Below, piece after piece: positions 13,877 through 21,438 of a DNA stretch of 64,000 nucleotides. The notes beneath the pieces were generated by a model. The model was not told where the DNA came from. It worked only from the letters and a program-made list of their open reading frames with translations, and searched no databases. The DNA comes from an uncultured Pseudomonadota bacterium (GTDB lineage: Bacteria; Pseudomonadota; Alphaproteobacteria; JACZXZ01), in contig CAVVLJ010000020.1 of the NCBI GenBank assembly GCA_963749075.1, positions 224,001 through 288,000 on the forward strand, given 5' to 3'. Each line of letters opens with the position of its first letter. The first letter of the stretch is position 1. The translations under genes were made by a program, and so were the position numbers.

Positions 13877-14860
13877 TCAGGCTGTCGACGGCACGGACGA
13901 GCTGGGCCTGGGCGGCGTCCCGGGCGGCGTTTGCGAGCTTCGCTTCACGATTTGCAGAGCGGTTGCCACCAGCGCGCCGACATTGCCGAGTTCGGCCGGG
14001 ATGATCATGGTCGTGCTCTGCTTGGCGAGATTGCCCCATTTGTCGATGAAATCCTTGGCGAGCTGCATCTGCAGCGCTTCGATGCCGCCTTCGACGACCG
14101 CCGCCGTGGCGATGGCGCGGATGGCATCGGCGGTCGCCGAGGCGACCAGCTCAATGGCCTTGGCTTCGCCTTCGGCGCGCAGTATCTCGGCTTGCCGGCG
14201 CCCGTCGGCGAGGTTGATCTCCTGCTGACGCTGGCCCTCGGAGGTGTTGATCTGCTGCTGGCGCTGGCCTTCCGATTTGAAGATCATCGCGCGCTTTTCC
14301 CGTTCCGCCGTGATCTGCAGCTCCATGGCGTGCAGGATTTCCGCCGGCGGAGTGATGTCCTTGATCTCGTAGCGCAGCACCTTGATCCCCCAGTTGACGG
14401 CGGCCTCCTCCACCGCCGCGGCGACCGCGGCATTCAGCATCTGCCGCGAGGACAGGGCCTGGTCGAGATGCAGCTTGCCGATCTCCGAGCGCATGCTGGT
14501 CTGCGCCAATTGCATTGCGGCGTTCATCGGATTGCTCGAGCCATAGGCCGCCTTCACCGCATCGGTGATCTGCAGATAGAGGAAGCCGTCGACGGTGAGG
14601 GTGGTGTTGTCGAGCGAGATGCAGACCTGCGCCGGCACTTCCGAGGGCACTTCGCGCAGGTCGAAGCGGTACGCGACGCGGTCCGCGAAGGGCACGAGGA
14701 CGTTCAACCCCGGCGTCAGGGCGCGGTGGAAGCGGCCGAGCCGCTCGACGATCCACGACTGCTGCTGCGGCACGATGCGCAGCGCCGAGCGGAGCACCGC
14801 GATCCCGAGGACCAGAAGAAGAATGAAGGGGATGAACGACGCGAGAAACTCGTCCCGCAT
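13877..14860 (-). CDS. SPFH/band 7 protein (QmcA-like)
   Basis: IVERLGRF, WGIKVLRYEIKDITPP, AEREKRA. Confidence 0.92.
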   Translation of the reverse strand: MRDEFLASFIPFILLLVLGIAVLRSALRIVPQQQSWIVERLGRFHRALTPGLNVLVPFADRVAYRFDLREVPSEVPAQVCISLDNTTLTVDGFLYLQITDAVKAAYGSSNPMNAAMQLAQTSMRSEIGKLHLDQALSSRQMLNAAVAAAVEEAAVNWGIKVLRYEIKDITPPAEILHAMELQITAEREKRAMIFKSEGQRQQQINTSEGQRQQEINLADGRRQAEILRAEGEAKAIELVASATADAIRAIATAAVVEGGIEALQMQLAKDFIDKWGNLAKQSTTMIIPAELGNVGALVATALQIVKRSSQTPPGTPPRPSSSVPSTA

Positions 14861-14879
14861 GATGCGTCTCCTCGAATGC

Positions 14880-15320
14880 CTATGACTGCGCCGCCTCGGG
14901 CGACGGGGAAAGATGCAGGAGCTTGTCGGTCTTGCGCGTGATGAAGGCCGTAGTGCCGGGAGCGGGGGCGGCGGTGCCTTCCATGACGGCCTCCCAATTC
15001 GTGCCGCGATAGCTCACCAAAACGTGGTTTTCCTGCGGCAATACGCTGACGACCGTCACGCGCTGGCCGATGTCGAAATCGACGAGCTGCTTGCTGCGCG
15101 CGAGACGCCGCCGGTAGAGCATGACCGCGGCCGTGACGATCGCACAAAGCAGCACGAACGCCAAGATCAGCAGGTCGCCCGAAACCCAGAAGCCGATCGC
15201 GACCGCGAGGAGTGCAGCGCCGGCGACGCCGGCAAGATAGAAGGTGCCGGTGTGCAGCTCGGCCAGTGCGGCGGAGAGGGCGACGACGAGGAAAAGCCAT
15301 TGCATGGGCGAAATGCTCAT
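14880..15320 (-). CDS. NfeD-like membrane protein (YbbJ-like)
   Basis: ELHTGTFYL, YRGTNWEA; adjacent to SPFH gene. Confidence 0.85.
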   Translation of the reverse strand: MSISPMQWLFLVVALSAALAELHTGTFYLAGVAGAALLAVAIGFWVSGDLLILAFVLLCAIVTAAVMLYRRRLARSKQLVDFDIGQRVTVVSVLPQENHVLVSYRGTNWEAVMEGTAAPAPGTTAFITRKTDKLLHLSPSPEAAQS

Positions 15321-15570
15321 TCGGACGGGCTCTTCAGTCCCGGGCAGATTGCCAGCGCGCTGCGCCCGATCGCGAGATCTCCAGCAGTTTCTTCGCGGCG
15401 CAGATCTCCATCGGGCGCCGGCGTCATCACGGCAGGCACCGCCCGCCGCCGGTAGCATGCTCTCTCGCGGCACAGAGAGCAATCCCGCGCGTCGGTAATG
15501 GTACAGTTTGAATTTCTGGGTCTCTCGCGCCCCGCTCCCCTCGTGACCGGAGCCGTGCCATACTTAGAGT

Positions 15571-15795
15571 ATGGCCATCAAGCGACTCAAACGTCCGCGC
15601 GACCCGCTCCAGCTCGCCAAGCTCATTGGTGATATTGCGACTGGGCAAGTTGCTGATAGGGCAGAAGATACCCGAAGCGCCGCCGCCGTCGAATTAGGCC
15701 AAAAAGGCGGCAAAGCGCGTGCAGCAAAATTGTCAAAAGAAAGACGAAAAGAGATCGCAAGTGCCGCAGCTCGGCGTAGATGGGGACATAAGTAA
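15571..15795 (+). CDS. Small basic protein at the IS end
   Basis: KRPRDPLQLAKLIGDIATG...LGQKGGKARAAKLS..RRKEIA..AA..RW; recalled as a frequent neighbour of such transposases. Confidence 0.75.
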   Translation: MAIKRLKRPRDPLQLAKLIGDIATGQVADRAEDTRSAAAVELGQKGGKARAAKLSKERRKEIASAAARRRWGHK

Positions 15796-15801
15796 TCTTG
15801 G

Positions 15802-16383
15802 TTAACTGCGCTTTGGGAGGAGCGGATTATCAGGTAAATTTGGAAGTGGCAGCGTCGGTATTACAAGTGCTGTGCCGGCCCCAAGACCGGGAAATGGGAA
15901 TAGCGGATTAGCAGCTCCCGCTGATTGTGGTTCCACCCGCAATGTTCCAAGTCTAATGATCTTATCGCCATAATCGGCGCGGACTTTAATTCGTCCCGCC
16001 TGAATCAAAATCATTGGTGACATAACAAACAGCGTGTTTATAGTGAAAAGCTCTGGCAAGTCTGGGTCAGGAGGCAGCGTAGTGGTCTTAAAAGTTTCGT
16101 CCACTGTCGCTTTATTAGCAGGAATTTCTCCGCCTACATTTGGTTTATCGGGGGCGTTACCGGGCAAGAAAATTTTGATTGTGATGCTCCAATCCCGATT
16201 TTCTGCCATTTTACGCGGTTCATTAAAGGTCGTCGCAATTCCGAACTTTGGCACCACCATTGGAAAAGCCGGCACGTAAATAACGGCGTTGTAAACGCCG
16301 ATGTAACTTGCCTTGTTACCAACCTCCGAACGAATGTCGTCACAAAAGATGGACGAGCCAAACGGTTCATCAAATTTGGACAT
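15802..16383 (-). CDS. Hypothetical protein, DUF6941-like
   Basis: IFCDDIRSEVGNKASYIGVY N-terminal motif; starts 4 nt after upstream stop. Confidence 0.65.
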   Translation of the reverse strand: MSKFDEPFGSSIFCDDIRSEVGNKASYIGVYNAVIYVPAFPMVVPKFGIATTFNEPRKMAENRDWSITIKIFLPGNAPDKPNVGGEIPANKATVDETFKTTTLPPDPDLPELFTINTLFVMSPMILIQAGRIKVRADYGDKIIRLGTLRVEPQSAGAANPLFPFPGLGAGTALVIPTLPLPNLPDNPLLPKRS

Positions 16384-16387
16384 TTGT

Positions 16388-16840
16388 TCAGCCTGACGTA
16401 GGTGTCCCCAGCAGATCACTGTATGCAATGCCGGTGGCGCCCCTAGTGGTTAGCATTGCCGCGTTAGGACCCGTGATATAGATCACGGCTCCTGCTGATG
16501 ACGAGGATAACCAATCAGGGTGCCGATAATTGCGCGGAGGCTCCTCAAGGGGGTGGACGATACTGTATCCTGCTTCCGCATGCGAAATGGCAAAAAGCAG
16601 ATCGCTCAAGGTATCAAGGCCCCAATTGCCCGGCGCACCGATTAAACGACACACAACGTCTGGTCGCTTATTCATCCGACGCGCCAGTTCAGCCTGAGTA
16701 AGGCCGCTCTTCTTGAATTCATTCAGCACAAGATCATGCACGCGGCTCCTGTTCCTAGCCTGAAAATAGGCGAACTCCCAAGCCGGGATCGCCCCTGTTC
16801 CCGTGGGGCTAAACGGGCTCAAAGTTGGAGAGGTAGTCAT
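16388..16840 (-). CDS. XRE-type HTH protein, putative antitoxin with C-terminal tail
   Basis: SGLTQAELARRMNKRPDVVCRLIGAPGNWGLDTLSDLLFAI. Confidence 0.75.
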   Translation of the reverse strand: MTTSPTLSPFSPTGTGAIPAWEFAYFQARNRSRVHDLVLNEFKKSGLTQAELARRMNKRPDVVCRLIGAPGNWGLDTLSDLLFAISHAEAGYSIVHPLEEPPRNYRHPDWLSSSSAGAVIYITGPNAAMLTTRGATGIAYSDLLGTPTSG

Positions 16841-17345
16841 TGAGGCTGGCTCCGTGGAACGGTTGATGTGGATGAAAGAGATTCCTCCATCTGGCCTTAC
16901 ATCGTTCGATCTCATCGCGCCAATCTTTGTCTTCAGCCAAATTCTCCCGAAAGTTAACGGTCAGCGCCACGAATAGATCTTTATCTGCAAAGCCACCAAG
17001 CACTCTGATCCCCGGTTTCGGATCAACGCATCGAATATCAAAAATGTCGTCCCTGGGCGGGTCTGTCCGTGCGACCCGGGTGGCCTTTGGCTTCTTATAG
17101 GGATCGTCGGCGACGGTTATGCGATCCCCCTGGGTCCAGGCATCCAAATAGGCTCGCATCTGCGTTAGCCGCCGTCCCTCTGTTGTCACCGGCCATGGCG
17201 GGTGTGCGACCTTATTGACCTCCTCGGAAACAAACAGCTCCCGTATCACCTTAGCGCTCGGAATGAGCGGCGGCAGGAAGAACAGCCGAGGAGGCACCTC
17301 GCTGACACGGTTATTGATTCCATCGCGTATTGACATATAAGTCAA
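16809..17345 (-). CDS. Hypothetical protein, putative RelE/HigB-like toxin
   Basis: DIFDIR....PGIRVLGGF...DLFVAL...R beta-strand pattern; overlaps downstream HTH gene. Confidence 0.5.
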   Translation of the reverse strand: MTYMSIRDGINNRVSEVPPRLFFLPPLIPSAKVIRELFVSEEVNKVAHPPWPVTTEGRRLTQMRAYLDAWTQGDRITVADDPYKKPKATRVARTDPPRDDIFDIRCVDPKPGIRVLGGFADKDLFVALTVNFRENLAEDKDWRDEIERCKARWRNLFHPHQPFHGASLNDYLSNFEPV

Positions 17346-17430
17346 TGAGAGAAATATTAAAGGACCTTACGCGCGATGGTAGCGCAATGCAGCTAGTAGA
17401 GTCCCGCATACATTCGTCAAAAGAAATTGC

Positions 17431-17459
17431 TTGACGCTAAGCATAAAATGACAGATACT
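17431..17459 (+). promoter_or_regulatory. Putative sigma70 promoter for the transposase
   Basis: TTGACG-17 bp-GATACT, ATG 6 nt downstream. Confidence 0.5.
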
Positions 17460-17465
17460 AGGGGC

Positions 17466-18416
17466 ATGAACAAATTGTCCCCTGAGAAGCGCGCCCAAAT
17501 CCTCGGCATGATGGCCGAAGGGGTTTCGTTGCGGTCGATCACACGCCTAACTGGCGTGAGCCGGACAACCTCCCTCAAGCTGCTGGTCGATGTCGGCAAC
17601 GCCTTCTCGGACTATCAGGATCGCGCGCTTCGCAACTTTCCGTGCAAGCGCGTGAAGGTTGACGAAATTTGGGCGTTCGTCGGGATGAAGGCGAAGAACG
17701 TTCCCGAGGAAAGGAAGGGCGAATACGGCATCGGGGACGTTTGGACATGGACGGCAATTGATGCGGATACGAAGCTCGTGCCGTCCTGGTTCGTCGGGAA
17801 CCGCGATGCCGAGCACGCGCGGACCCTCCTAAGCGATCTTGCAGGCCGCATGGCCGGTCGCATCCAACTAACGTCAGACGCCATGCGCGCCTATCGGGAC
17901 GCGGTACATGACGCGTTCCTAGACGAGATCGACTATGCCCAGCTCGTCAAGATTTACGGCGAAGACCCGGAAAGTATGAAGGGGCGCTATAGTCCCGCCG
18001 AGCGCATCGGCTGCGAGCGCCAGAAGATCAGCGGGAACGCTGATCCAAAGCATATCAGCACTTCTCACGTCGAGCGGCAGAACCTCAATATCAGAATGGG
18101 GCTGCGCCGCTTCACGCGCTTGACCAATGCATTTTCAAAGAAGCTCGAAAACCATGTGCACGGCCTCGCCATCTACTTTATGTACTACAACTTCGTTCGC
18201 ATCCATCAAACATTGCGCGTCACCCCCGCGATGGCAGCCGGCGTAACCGACAAGCTTTGGGAGCTAAGCGATTTGGTTCGGATCGTGGAAGAATACGAGC
18301 GTGAGCCCGTCTCGGACGCCGACGCACCATCCGATATAGATCGCCTTTTGAGCGACGCCGACGGCTATATGCGACGCCCAGGACACCCCGACCAGCACGG
18401 CCCGCAGCGAACCTAA
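17466..18416 (+). CDS. IS1-family DDE transposase (single ORF)
   Basis: N-terminal HTH (GVSLRSITRLTGVSRTT); VDEIWAFV, TSD, VERQNLNIR; FSKKLENH. Confidence 0.9.
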   Translation: MNKLSPEKRAQILGMMAEGVSLRSITRLTGVSRTTSLKLLVDVGNAFSDYQDRALRNFPCKRVKVDEIWAFVGMKAKNVPEERKGEYGIGDVWTWTAIDADTKLVPSWFVGNRDAEHARTLLSDLAGRMAGRIQLTSDAMRAYRDAVHDAFLDEIDYAQLVKIYGEDPESMKGRYSPAERIGCERQKISGNADPKHISTSHVERQNLNIRMGLRRFTRLTNAFSKKLENHVHGLAIYFMYYNFVRIHQTLRVTPAMAAGVTDKLWELSDLVRIVEEYEREPVSDADAPSDIDRLLSDADGYMRRPGHPDQHGPQRT

Positions 18417-18465
18417 TCATCGGAGATCGCGAGGACCCGGATTTTTTCGGCGAATCGATCACAGA

Positions 18466-19332
18466 ATGCTGAAGCGGCTGTTAAAAGCTTTTTGGGTTGC
18501 CTTGTTCGCGTGTCTGGTGCTCGGATACGTCTCTCTGGTTTGGTATGCATCACAAGCGCCCGGGTCATCGCAATACGAACGCCGCACCTACCATACCAAT
18601 GAAAAAGCCGGCCAGCGCAACCCACCCCAAACCCTTTGGGAATGGGTGACGCATGACGCAATAGCTGTCTTCACTTTCTTCCTGGCCGCCTTTACCGGCG
18701 CGCTCTTCTGGGTTTCCATCATTGAAATGCGATACCTGAGACGCGCCGATAAGACGGCACGGAAACTCGCGAAAATCACCAAACAACAGACTGCTATTTT
18801 GGCCGCTCAAGCCGATATCGCATTGAAGCAGCATGAACTCGAGCGCTTGCAGTTTATCGCCGACAAGAGGCCGAGATTGCGCATCCGGAACGTTGTTGTG
18901 AGGCCGGCAAGCGTCACGGGCTATGAGCCGACCCTTTTCCATCCCGGACAATATGTCGGTGGTCAATGCTATATCGCCAACTCTGGAGGCATCGACGCTG
19001 TTGTTGTGGAGGCTCACTGTGAGGTCTTTGTGACTAACGTTCAGCTGCCAATGGAAAGGCCCTACGAAGGGAAAAACGGCAATTCGGCGATCCGCCCAAC
19101 GATTCCTCCCGGCGGTTCTGTGCCATTCCCATTTCAGAGCGATACCATTATCAGCGAACACCAGTCGCAGGCGGTCAGGAACGGCATTGGTTATCGGCTT
19201 TACTTGCTTGGATGGGTTGAATACGAAGACATCAAGGGAGTGCGAAGACGTACTGCGTTCTGCAGGAAATATGATGCCGCCACCGGTCGCTTCGCCGCAG
19301 TAGATGACCCCGATTACGAACACGAAGAATAG
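18466..19332 (+). CDS. Hypothetical membrane-anchored passenger protein
   Basis: Two hydrophobic segments, coiled stretch, beta-rich C-terminus (GWVEYEDIKG..RRTAFC); inside IS ends. Confidence 0.65.
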   Translation: MLKRLLKAFWVALFACLVLGYVSLVWYASQAPGSSQYERRTYHTNEKAGQRNPPQTLWEWVTHDAIAVFTFFLAAFTGALFWVSIIEMRYLRRADKTARKLAKITKQQTAILAAQADIALKQHELERLQFIADKRPRLRIRNVVVRPASVTGYEPTLFHPGQYVGGQCYIANSGGIDAVVVEAHCEVFVTNVQLPMERPYEGKNGNSAIRPTIPPGGSVPFPFQSDTIISEHQSQAVRNGIGYRLYLLGWVEYEDIKGVRRRTAFCRKYDAATGRFAAVDDPDYEHEE

Positions 19333-19388
19333 GATGGCGCCGCGCGACGTTCGGGGAATTCGGCATAATTGTCGAAACTGACCCACTA

Positions 19389-21294
19389 GTGCGCCAGGAA
19401 GCTGGCGTGATCCAGCCGGTGAAAGTCCGGCCCAGGTAAGGGGTAGCGCCCGCCTGGTAGCGAGTGTTGCGCTGTGGAAGGCAACGACCACGGCGAAGCG
19501 TACACAGCGATTGTGCGGGGTGGGCTATTGAGCCGCGTAAGCAGTAATGTCGGAGGGGCCGAGGCTTTTAGTGTAGCCGAAGGCAACATGTGCGGCGCCG
19601 CTATGCGAGGCGCCGTCGCCCTACCGAGGTCGAAGACCCCATCACGCACAAAGGGAGCCCGCCGGAACCTGGGAGATCCCACGTCCGGCCAGCGGCGACA
19701 AGCCGCCCTGGTCCGCATCGGGAAGGCGAGGAGCCGTAGCCGATGACGCACGGGCGCGGGAAGTCAGACTCCGCCATAGTAGCTGGGAAGCCGACGAACA
19801 AGGCCGGGCAATCGGTTGCGGAGCCGGTGGAGCGAAGGGCGGAGGCCAAGGGGAATGCGGGCCAGCACAGCACGCGCCGGGCACAGGACCGGGAAAGCGT
19901 GTCCCATGCGCTGGATCGCATACGACAAGCGGCAAGGCAAAGGAAGAAGGAACGGTTCACCTCGCTCTTCCACCATATCACCATCAGCCTGCTCCGGCTG
20001 GCGTTCTTCGCGCTCAAGCGAGACGCCATGCCCGGCGTAGACGGGTTGACATGGCAGGACTACGAGGCAGACCTCGAGTGCAAGCTCGAGGACCTGCACG
20101 CACGGGTCCGCCGGGGAGCGTATCGGGCACTGCCGTCCCGGCGACGGTACATACCGAAACCGGACGGCCGGCAGCGCCCGCTCGCGGTCGCCGCCCTCGA
20201 GGACAAGATCGTCCAACGGGCGACCATCGCGGTGCTGAACGCGATCTACGAGGAGGACTTCCTCGGGTTCTCGTATGGCTTCCGGCCACGGCGCGGCCAG
20301 CACGATGCGCTGGACGCACTGGCGGTCGGGCTCACCAGCAAGAAGGTGAACTACGTTCTCGATGCGGACATCCGGTCCTTTTTCGACGCGGTCGATCAAA
20401 CATGGCTCGTCCGCTTCTTGGAGAACCGGATCAGTGACCCGCGTATCATCCGCCTGATCCAGAAATGGCTCAAGGCGGGCATCCTGGAAGACGGGGTCGT
20501 GACGGTGAGTGAGAGGGGGACGGGACAGGGCTCGGTGGCATCACCGCTCCTTGCCAACGTCTACCTGCACTACGTCTTCGACCTCTGGGCCGAGCGCTGG
20601 CGACGGCGCGAGGCACAGGGCGATATGATCATCGTGCGCTATGCGGACGACATCGTTGTCGGCTTCGAGCGTGAGGCCGACGCCCGACGCTTCTGGGAGG
20701 CGATGCGGGAGCGGTTGCAGGAGTTCTCGCTGACGCTGCATCCGGAAAAGACCCGCCTGATCGAGTTTGGCCGCCATGCCGCGGCCGAGCGCAAGCAGCG
20801 CGGGCTCGGTAAACCGGAAACCTTCAACTTCCTAGGCTTCACCTTCCTCTGCGGTAAATCGCGCCGCGGGAACTTCCTCCTCAAGCGGAAGACCCGGCGT
20901 GACCGCATGGTGGCCAAGCTCAAGGAGGTAAAGGGCGAACTGCGGCGGCGGATGCATCAGCCCATCCCGGTGCAAGGGACGTGGCTGCGGCAGGTCGTCA
21001 CCGGCTTCTTTGGCTATCACGCAGTGCCGACAAACTTCCCGGCACTTGCGGCCTTCCGGCGCCATGTCACCGGCCTCTGGCGGCGCACGCTCCGGCGGCG
21101 CAGCCAGAAGGACGGCTCGACCTGGGGACGGATCGAGAAGCTGGCCGACGACTTTCTCCCAAAACCCCGCATCCTTCACCCCTGGCCGAGCAAGCGCTTC
21201 GCCGTCAAACACCCGAGGTGGGAGCCGTATGCGGGAAATCCGCCCGTACGGATCTGTGCGGGGGGCGCCCAGTAATGGGCGTCCCTACCGCGAT
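19389..21294 (+). mobile_element. Group II intron
   Basis: 5' GTGCG; domain V GAGCCGTATGCGGGAAATCCGCCCGTACGGATC; domain VI ending CCCTACCGCGAT; internal RT ORF. Confidence 0.95.
19743..21275 (+). CDS. ltrA: Group II intron reverse transcriptase/maturase, no endonuclease domain
   Basis: YIPKPDGRQRPL, SYGFRP, QGSVASPLLANVYLH, RYADD, FNFLGF; no HNH motif. Confidence 0.95.
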   Translation: MTHGRGKSDSAIVAGKPTNKAGQSVAEPVERRAEAKGNAGQHSTRRAQDRESVSHALDRIRQAARQRKKERFTSLFHHITISLLRLAFFALKRDAMPGVDGLTWQDYEADLECKLEDLHARVRRGAYRALPSRRRYIPKPDGRQRPLAVAALEDKIVQRATIAVLNAIYEEDFLGFSYGFRPRRGQHDALDALAVGLTSKKVNYVLDADIRSFFDAVDQTWLVRFLENRISDPRIIRLIQKWLKAGILEDGVVTVSERGTGQGSVASPLLANVYLHYVFDLWAERWRRREAQGDMIIVRYADDIVVGFEREADARRFWEAMRERLQEFSLTLHPEKTRLIEFGRHAAAERKQRGLGKPETFNFLGFTFLCGKSRRGNFLLKRKTRRDRMVAKLKEVKGELRRRMHQPIPVQGTWLRQVVTGFFGYHAVPTNFPALAAFRRHVTGLWRRTLRRRSQKDGSTWGRIEKLADDFLPKPRILHPWPSKRFAVKHPRWEPYAGNPPVRICAGGAQ

Positions 21295-21438
21295 CCCGCG
21301 CGTCCGCCTTGGGATGGCGGCGGCTTCCGGCGATTGTCCGAAAAGCGTCATGGGCGGCCCTGCCGGAAAGCGGCCTCATGTCCGCAAACCAGCCATCGCA
21401 GGCATGGCGGCCGAAACCCCGCCCTGCCATGCGAGTTT

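Follow-up and report, generated by a model that had tools for sequence, protein, structure and literature searches.

Tripartite toxin-antitoxin-chaperone (TAC) systems combine a toxin and an antitoxin with a third, SecB-like protein. As far as the accessible text of PMC5105189 describes them, the TAC systems with SecB share a pattern in which the third gene is constant, the first two genes are exchangeable, the antitoxin tails cannot be aligned and evolution is fast. Toxin-antitoxin (TA) pairs are also carried as integral passengers by transposons of the Tn3 family, according to the available part of PMC7157771. The locus treated here can be set beside both. It consists of three genes, encoding a candidate toxin (gene 1), a helix-turn-helix (HTH) protein with a tail (gene 2) and a DUF6941 protein (gene 3), placed inside an insertion sequence (IS) of the IS1 family. 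The window, the whole stretch of DNA that was analysed, comprises 64,000 nucleotides (nt) of contig CAVVLJ010000020.1 (assembly GCA_963749075.1) from an uncultured Pseudomonadota bacterium (lineage Alphaproteobacteria; JACZXZ01), and all coordinates without another label are positions in it.

The three genes are tentatively read as a HigBA-like TA pair with a non-SecB third protein that acts through the antitoxin tail, the whole being kept as an IS passenger. The probability assigned to this reading is roughly 0.45. In the proposed mechanism, the product of gene 1 would be a ribosome-dependent mRNA endonuclease, which the product of gene 2 would bind and neutralise. The gene 2 protein would also repress the operon from a 90-bp region common to the transposase gene and gene 1. 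The gene 3 protein, made in translational coupling with that of gene 2, would bind the tail of 40 amino acids (aa) of the gene 2 protein and set the folding or the half-life of the latter; loss or titration of the gene 3 protein would then free the toxin. For the IS, the module would be a means of addiction or of stable invasion, and not a proven anti-phage system. Three steps of this mechanism are inferred: that the fold implies toxicity, that the tail is bound, and that carriage on the IS amounts to addiction.

Organization of the module

The candidate toxin gene (16809..17336, 175 aa), the gene of the XRE-type HTH protein (16388..16840, 150 aa) and the DUF6941 gene (15802..16383, 193 aa) are all present in the window as minus-strand open reading frames (ORF). 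An earlier sequence-only reading of this DNA had given the order as toxin-like gene, HTH-with-tail gene and third gene, tightly coupled, and this order holds. For gene 1, the start is the ATG at 17336 (MSIRD), which is kept in 42 aligned relatives, rather than the TTG at 17345, which would give a longer ORF. Gene 2 begins at 16840 (MTTS, conserved among relatives) and not at the ATG of a longer ORF at 16915, and the start of gene 3 at 16383 (MSKFDEPFG) is fixed by its relatives. With these starts, the overlap of 32 nt between genes 1 and 2 and the gap of 4 nt between genes 2 and 3 are reproduced, which confirms the tight coupling. The gene overlapping that of the candidate toxin is the one that encodes the predicted DNA-binding HTH domain.

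A divergent region of 90 bp (17337..17426) separates gene 1 from the transposase gene and is presumed to contain the promoter and a putative operator. A single sigma-70-like site (17330-17358; consensus match only) is directed at the transposase gene. The GC content of the module island is 0.48-0.60 versus 0.65-0.75 in the flanks.

Predicted fold and conserved residues of gene 1

Gene 1 has 58 relatives, nearly all metagenomic, unnamed and about 175 aa long. The AlphaFold2 model of its product, built from 42 sequences, reaches a predicted local distance difference test (pLDDT) value of 96.7 and a predicted template modelling (pTM) score of 0.91, and suggests a HigB/Gp49-like fold of the RelE superfamily. 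When this model is compared with the PDB by Foldseek, HigB chains occupy ranks 1-7 and YoeB follows lower. The HigB matches are those of Streptococcus pneumoniae, of Mycobacterium tuberculosis (HigB1, a TAC toxin) and of Vibrio cholerae (HigB2), and the best fold matches include the entries 6af4 and 7awk (M. tuberculosis HigB1) as well as HigB2. These matches score only modestly, with E-values of 0.018-0.08, a probability of at most 0.98 and template modelling (TM) scores by target of 0.40-0.58, which lie at 0.54-0.58 for the best HigB hits. With HigB toxins as the top fold matches of a model of this quality, the RelE/HigB-like character first read from the strand pattern is supported within the limits of these modest scores.

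In the predicted protein, a first strand is followed by two helices, then by three long strands and finally by a long C-terminal helix. The same order is described for Gp49-like HigB toxins in the accessible part of PMC9098466. The nearest named cluster in the ESM-Atlas is that of RelE/ParE toxins, in which 28% of the members contain Gp49 (PF05973); the score is only 0.78 (all named clusters lie below 0.9), so this cluster is taken as a lead only. Comparison of gene 1 by hhalign with two Gp49-type proteins from related loci yielded E-values of 0.45 and 0.03, which are not significant, with the same strand motif aligned.

Within the clade of gene 1 found in the window (42 sequences), position 100 is D or E in 40 members, R102 and R111 are present in all 42, and position 130 (window 16947-16949) is R or H in 40. 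Judged by motif and spacing, D100-x-R102, R111 and R130 of gene 1 could stand for the residues E66, R68, R77 and K95 of HigB-TAC given in the available text of PMC9098466.

The HTH protein and the DUF6941 protein

In the gene 2 protein, residues 1-110 form a conserved domain and residues 111-150 a variable tail. The protein has 177 relatives at E<=1e-3. It matches the transcriptional regulator family phrog_1373 at 4e-6, and the profile of its family matches the HTH of the antitoxin HicB at 4.6e-5; its own match to Pfam HTH_3 is weak (E 0.27). The assignment as an XRE HTH protein with a tail stood, and the length of about 55 aa first given for the tail did not, about 40 aa lying beyond the conserved domain. 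This tail varies in length and sequence and cannot be aligned among 60 relatives. The ChAD tails of TAC antitoxins are described likewise, without conserved sequence, in the accessible text of PMC5105189. The HTH tail motif persists where DUF6941 is not adjacent, but DUF6941 still lies less than 3 kb away in such cases, and the comparison thus does not discriminate on tail loss. Complex prediction for the gene 2 protein with residues 1-160 of the gene 3 protein returned a score of 0.02, which counts neither for nor against binding.

Gene 3 matches Pfam PF22091 (DUF6941) with 32.3 bits (cut-off 27), covering profile positions 3-124 of 125. A word search retrieved 17 relatives, and the profile search 4679 cluster representatives, 2085 of these at E<=1e-10. 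Full-text literature searches for 'DUF6941' and 'PF22091' found no paper. The AlphaFold2 model (pLDDT 90.9) is an all-beta sandwich that forms the core of the protein at residues 8-152. It is followed by a disordered, proline-rich C-terminal tail of about 40 aa (residues 153-193, window 15802-15924), which is missing from the 16 closest relatives. The invariant residues of the family are F13, C14, R18, E20, G29 and G130, and no signal peptide is present. Foldseek against the PDB returned generic beta-sandwich domains with TM scores of about 0.3, and the sequence profile found nothing below E 0.37 in the PDB.

A SecB identity was considered for gene 3 and rejected, no SecB being present among the best PDB fold matches listed (ranks 1-50). 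With DUF6941 as the only Pfam family and a beta-sandwich as the model, the view that the third protein does not look like SecB is retained. Uncharacterised phage proteins have the DUF6941 fold (BFVD, E 1e-7, TM score by target 0.6). One DUF6941-like gene, gp50c of the temperate Pseudomonas phage MR15 (L084 2495-2914), is found alone among small early genes near the Cro/CI regulators.

The IS1-family element and its intron

The transposase (17427..18416, plus strand, 329 aa) matches Pfam DDE_Tnp_IS1 with 33.8 bits (cut-off 24.1) and NCBIfam transpos_IS1 with 71 bits, below the cut-off of 100. A generic scan of the window for inverted repeats (IR) gave no convincing IS ends, which were found through relatives only. 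Three related loci (L007, L076 and L082) have perfect IRs of 18 bp (GGTAGTG..TCAGTTTGA) with target duplications of 8 bp, and these IRs enclose the transposase gene, two variable genes, DUF6941 and an ORF of 74 aa; two further loci (L005 and L016) also carry the IR pair. The left repeat of the window element (IR-L, 15494..15511, plus strand) has two mismatches to the family IR motif, which was derived from L016 and L082, and is the sole match to that motif in the 64-kb window (chance expectation 0.07).

The right repeat (IR-R, 19372..19388, minus strand) reads ...TCGAAACTGACCCACTA, and its last two nt, CC, lie at 21295-21296, past a group II intron (19389..21294, plus strand) inserted 2 nt inside IR-R. 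Once joined across the intron, IR-R is identical to the family IR over its first 16 nt. Identical copies of the 8-bp target-site duplication CGCGCGTC stand to the left of IR-L (15486..15493) and at the right end (21297..21304). The terminal IRs and the duplication enclose all three genes, and their earlier description as IS cargo is confirmed.

The intron begins with GTGCG at 19389 and contains matches to Rfam group-II-D1D4-6 at 19422-19639 (164 bits) and to Rfam Intron_gpII at 21220-21294 (50 bits), together with a reverse transcriptase ORF at 19743-21275 (Pfam RVT_1, 4e-37). From the end of the Rfam match, the restored IR end and the duplication, the 3' end of the intron is inferred at 21294. 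Since the CC of IR-R is cut off by the intron, the IS in the window may have lost its mobility as DNA. Without the intron the element measures 3897 bp (15494-19388 plus 2 nt) and consists of the 74-aa ORF, genes 3-2-1, the transposase gene and an ORF of 288 aa.

The 74-aa ORF (15571..15795, plus strand) is convergent with gene 3 and is a constant passenger of this IS group. Its relatives, which share 45-67% identity with the window copy, are always just downstream of DUF6941 and convergent with it, and a search of Pfam with the ORF found no family. It also occurs beside IS1595-type transposases (L064). The 288-aa ORF (18466..19332, plus strand), with an N-terminal hydrophobic segment, lies inside the IRs and is an additional passenger peculiar to this copy: none of the 83 related loci described below contains a relative, and its family matches do not exceed chance level. 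Passenger genes can be carried by IS1-family members of the ISMhu11 type; a literature search found no paper naming ISMhu11. At L076 (176-3923), two IS copies stand head to tail, the second IR-L following the first IR-R after 8 bp, with a shared duplicated 8-mer, CAAGCAGG. The left end of the window element is directly adjoined by genes for an SPFH/Band 7 protein and an NfeD-like protein (13877-15482), and the insertion just upstream of this pair could affect its expression.

Recurrence of the module and exchange of its first two genes

A genome scan with a DUF6941 alignment yielded 539 relatives, of which the best 80 loci, nearly all from Alphaproteobacteria, were examined. Together with three plasmid loci they form a sample of 83 (L001-L083). 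Relatives of gene 1 were sought among the ORF of these loci with a profile iterated once; the count was 42 before the iteration. The three genes co-occur elsewhere, and the arrangement is a recurrent one among soil bacteria, many of which have it: 67 of the 83 DUF6941 loci contain a relative of gene 1 and thereby all three genes in one locus. In 47 loci the relative is encoded on the DUF6941 strand, two genes upstream, and forms a contiguous trio with the HTH gene and DUF6941 (in one of these, L053, it is a fragment of 60 aa), and in 20 it is on the opposite strand at less than 3 kb. At the computational level, the module passed both checks on which the sequence-only reading would have fallen, a RelE-like fold of gene 1 and the joint occurrence of the three genes in other loci. 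The distant members align to gene 1 along the strand motif, with E-values of just 1e-4 to 9e-4. An ORF is present directly upstream of DUF6941 in 76 loci: 56 of these ORF match an HTH-type Pfam family (E<=0.01), 19 lack such a match, and the remaining one encodes a dehydrogenase. On plasmids, gene 1 and gene 2 find a match only in pRtrCIAT899b of R. tropici, and this plasmid carries all three genes.

Of the 83 loci, 9 encode the same IS1-type transposase and 8 contain an ORF related to that of 74 aa. No gene 1 relative is present in 16 loci, several of which have another pair before DUF6941. Such differences are found within one IS family: DUF6941 is preceded by a gene 1 family member and an XRE gene in the window, L076, L080 and L082, by DUF4160 and an HTH protein of about 200 aa in L005, L007 and L016, and by Gp49 with HTH_3/HTH_37 in L006 and L015. 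DUF6941 and the 74-aa ORF are thus constant in this family, and the first two genes are exchanged for unrelated pairs.

Between the window and L076, L080 and L082, the identity is 59-68% for the transposase and 61-67% for the 74-aa ORF. The corresponding values for the cassette are 31-32% for gene 1, 34-46% for gene 2 and 30-31% for gene 3; genes 1 and 2 of L082 fall below the BLASTP cut-off and were detected by profile only. When compared at the DNA level with plasmids and the 83 loci, the window shared only its transposase gene and its intron with them.

Weighing of the readings

A number of observations weigh against a HigBA-like pair with a tail-directed third protein. Gene 1 has no match in Pfam, NCBIfam, PADLOC or the PDB sequences, searched with the single sequence and, for the PDB, also with two profiles. 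Gp49 (PF05973) is matched in only 2 of 60 gene 1 relatives, with a best E of 0.0058, under the cut-off. The fold matches themselves are weak, 0.018 being the lowest E-value, and no superposition underlies the correspondence of residues between gene 1 and HigB. The sample, being the best 80 of 539, is biased to close relatives.

Other observations on the same side come from DUF6941. One strand of the family holds the invariant polar motif F-C-D-D-x-R-x-E, which is unusual for a holdase, and DUF6941-like genes stand alone in phage early regions, as in the Pseudomonas phage, where no such pair precedes the gene. DUF6941 is, in addition, uncoupled from the gene 1/HTH pair and transcriptionally apart from it in 20 loci, in 19 of which it lies directly upstream of a curlin-repeat gene; this argues for a partner or role of DUF6941 beyond the antitoxin tail. 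Genes 1 and 2 might, in these terms, be a plain two-part HigBA-like pair, and DUF6941 and the 74-aa ORF an independent passenger, for instance a small enzyme or ligand-binding protein using the C-D-D-R-E patch. The constancy of DUF6941 and the 74-aa ORF in the IS group behind a varying pair and the very large size of the DUF6941 family agree with this account. It is nevertheless judged rather unlikely: both in the window and in the majority of trios, no more than a few nt of gap or overlap lie between the HTH gene and DUF6941, every HTH protein preceding DUF6941 has a C-terminal extension, and the adjacency of the HTH gene and DUF6941 is kept across unrelated first genes.

The main rival to the TA-with-third-protein reading draws on an unexpected genomic context, which the sequence-only reading had not foreseen. 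Curlin-repeat, CsgH-like or CsgG genes adjoin the trio in 45 of the 83 loci, within 6.4 kb per locus. These names derive from the RefSeq annotation of two loci (L001 and L002) and from one Pfam Curlin_rpt match. At least three rearranged layouts exist. In the first, the trio is divergent from curlin-csgH; in the second, DUF6941 immediately precedes the curlin gene and the gene 1/HTH pair is convergent; in the third, HTH-DUF6941-curlin adjoins csgG. The genera concerned are Bradyrhizobium, Methylobacterium, Bosea, Rhizobium and Beijerinckia, and examples of curli-embedded trios are found at L025 (2992-6297) and L050 (24-3444). Curli loci of Alphaproteobacteria lack csgC, csgD and csgE, as the available part of PMC3521004 describes, and because csgD is absent their regulators are unknown. 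In its accessible part, a 2012 survey of curli operons does not mention the trio in curli clusters.

The presence of more than half of the related loci in curli-type clusters points to a possible, purely regulatory role. The trio would then be non-toxic, with an XRE transcription factor, a catalytically dead co-regulator of RelE fold and DUF6941 as an accessory that senses a signal or binds a partner, and would control curli genes on chromosomes or the transposase gene on the IS. All 42 curli-linked relatives of gene 1 have A or T at position 130 and K at position 102, and the A/T at position 130 may mean that nuclease activity was lost in this chromosomal clade. The 90-bp divergent region common to gene 1 and the transposase gene also suits a regulator. 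On the other hand, the 64-kb window contains no curli genes, and R/H130, together with R102 and R111, is retained in its clade. The swap for DUF4160- or Gp49-type pairs is typical of TA cassettes and not of a dedicated regulator, and the cassette evolves much faster than the IS flanks. The HTH tails of the curli clade showed no significant similarity to curlin repeats (best E 0.13). A regulatory trio is a serious rival account of the window module, though a less probable one.

Both accounts may hold, with the mobile copies active and the curli-linked copies domesticated, as is hinted by position 130. A more far-reaching version is unlikely, though it would join the two contexts. In this version, DUF6941 would be a second, SecB-independent partner of antitoxin tails, a chaperone or a sensor, in a new tripartite TA family on IS1- and IS1595-type elements. 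The chromosomal descendants, having lost the catalytic base of the toxin, would have been recruited as regulators of csgD-less curli loci.

The sequence-only reading had also proposed a defence module, and this part was not sustained. In PADLOC-DB 2.0.0, genes 1 and 3 have no model, and gene 2 matches only the HTH of PDC-M64C (2.8e-4). The flanks of the 38 non-curli loci are not defence islands: the 106 flanking ORF covered, out of 114 chosen, are housekeeping genes with many transposases and recombinases and show no defence-island pattern, the only defence-type matches being one Uma2, one RecD-like helicase and one weak GT4-conflict. An abortive infection of TAC type, in which a phage protein would displace DUF6941 from the antitoxin tail and release the toxin, would be analogous to what the available texts on HigBAC and CmdTAC describe (PMC11980606; 10.1101/2024.02.24.581848; PMC11618068). 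The fast divergence of the cassette and the DUF6941-fold proteins of phages are consistent with it. In view of the PADLOC and neighbourhood results, such a role is considered very improbable, and the module is here discussed as a candidate TA pair on an IS, with a third protein that may act on the tail.

Comparison with known systems

Gp49/HigB-HigA modules (PF05973 with an XRE antitoxin) share with the window module the toxin-first order and the XRE-type HTH antitoxin. Their toxins resemble gene 1 in its predicted fold, in the long C-terminal helix and in the candidate pattern of E/D-x-R, a further R and a basic residue. They differ from it in that gene 1 is about 55 aa longer and falls below the Pfam threshold, and in the third gene that is always attached in the gene 1 clade. 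A literature search on tripartite systems turned up only the HigBAC of Caulobacter. In its available text (bioRxiv 10.1101/2020.07.22.216945), a third gene is likewise transcribed together with higBA in an alphaproteobacterium, but this gene encodes a LytTR transcription factor, unrelated to DUF6941.

The TA passengers of Tn3-family transposons resemble the window module in the placement of a TA-like module beside the transposase gene and inside the element ends, and in the use of the same slot by several TA types, including Gp49. The carrier is here an IS1-family IS of 2.9-3.9 kb, with a three-gene cassette and a constant 74-aa ORF. IS1-family elements with a complete three-gene cassette extend the idea of TA modules in transposition from Tn3 to small IS.

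CsgC and CsgH are small beta-sandwich proteins of curli loci that restrain amyloid-prone sequences. Unlike DUF6941, which lacks a signal peptide, they are located in the periplasm, and no match in sequence or fold was found; the likeness is an idea only. The curli-linked trios are concrete candidates for the unknown regulation of alphaproteobacterial curli.

The closest parallel is that with the TAC systems, namely HigBAC of M. tuberculosis and Escherichia coli, MqsRAC, HicABC and CmdTAC. The order of toxin, antitoxin and third gene is the same, with tight coupling, and the predicted fold of gene 1 comes nearest to that of the Gp49-type HigB. An antitoxin C-terminal extension of about 40 aa without conserved sequence is shared as far as its presence goes. 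The third gene is in both cases joined to unrelated TA-type pairs, three such pairs in the case of DUF6941. In its constant third gene, exchangeable first two genes, unalignable tails and fast evolution, the cassette follows the pattern described for TAC systems with SecB. The differences are that the third protein is SecB-like there and a DUF6941 beta-sandwich here, and that the module here is an IS passenger. Because it has no SecB, the trio is not a member of the TAC systems as defined, and at most works like one. If gene 3 controls the antitoxin via the tail, the DUF6941 family, with its 4679 representatives, would gain a first testable role, and the 'chaperone addiction' logic of TAC would have arisen twice, with unrelated third proteins.

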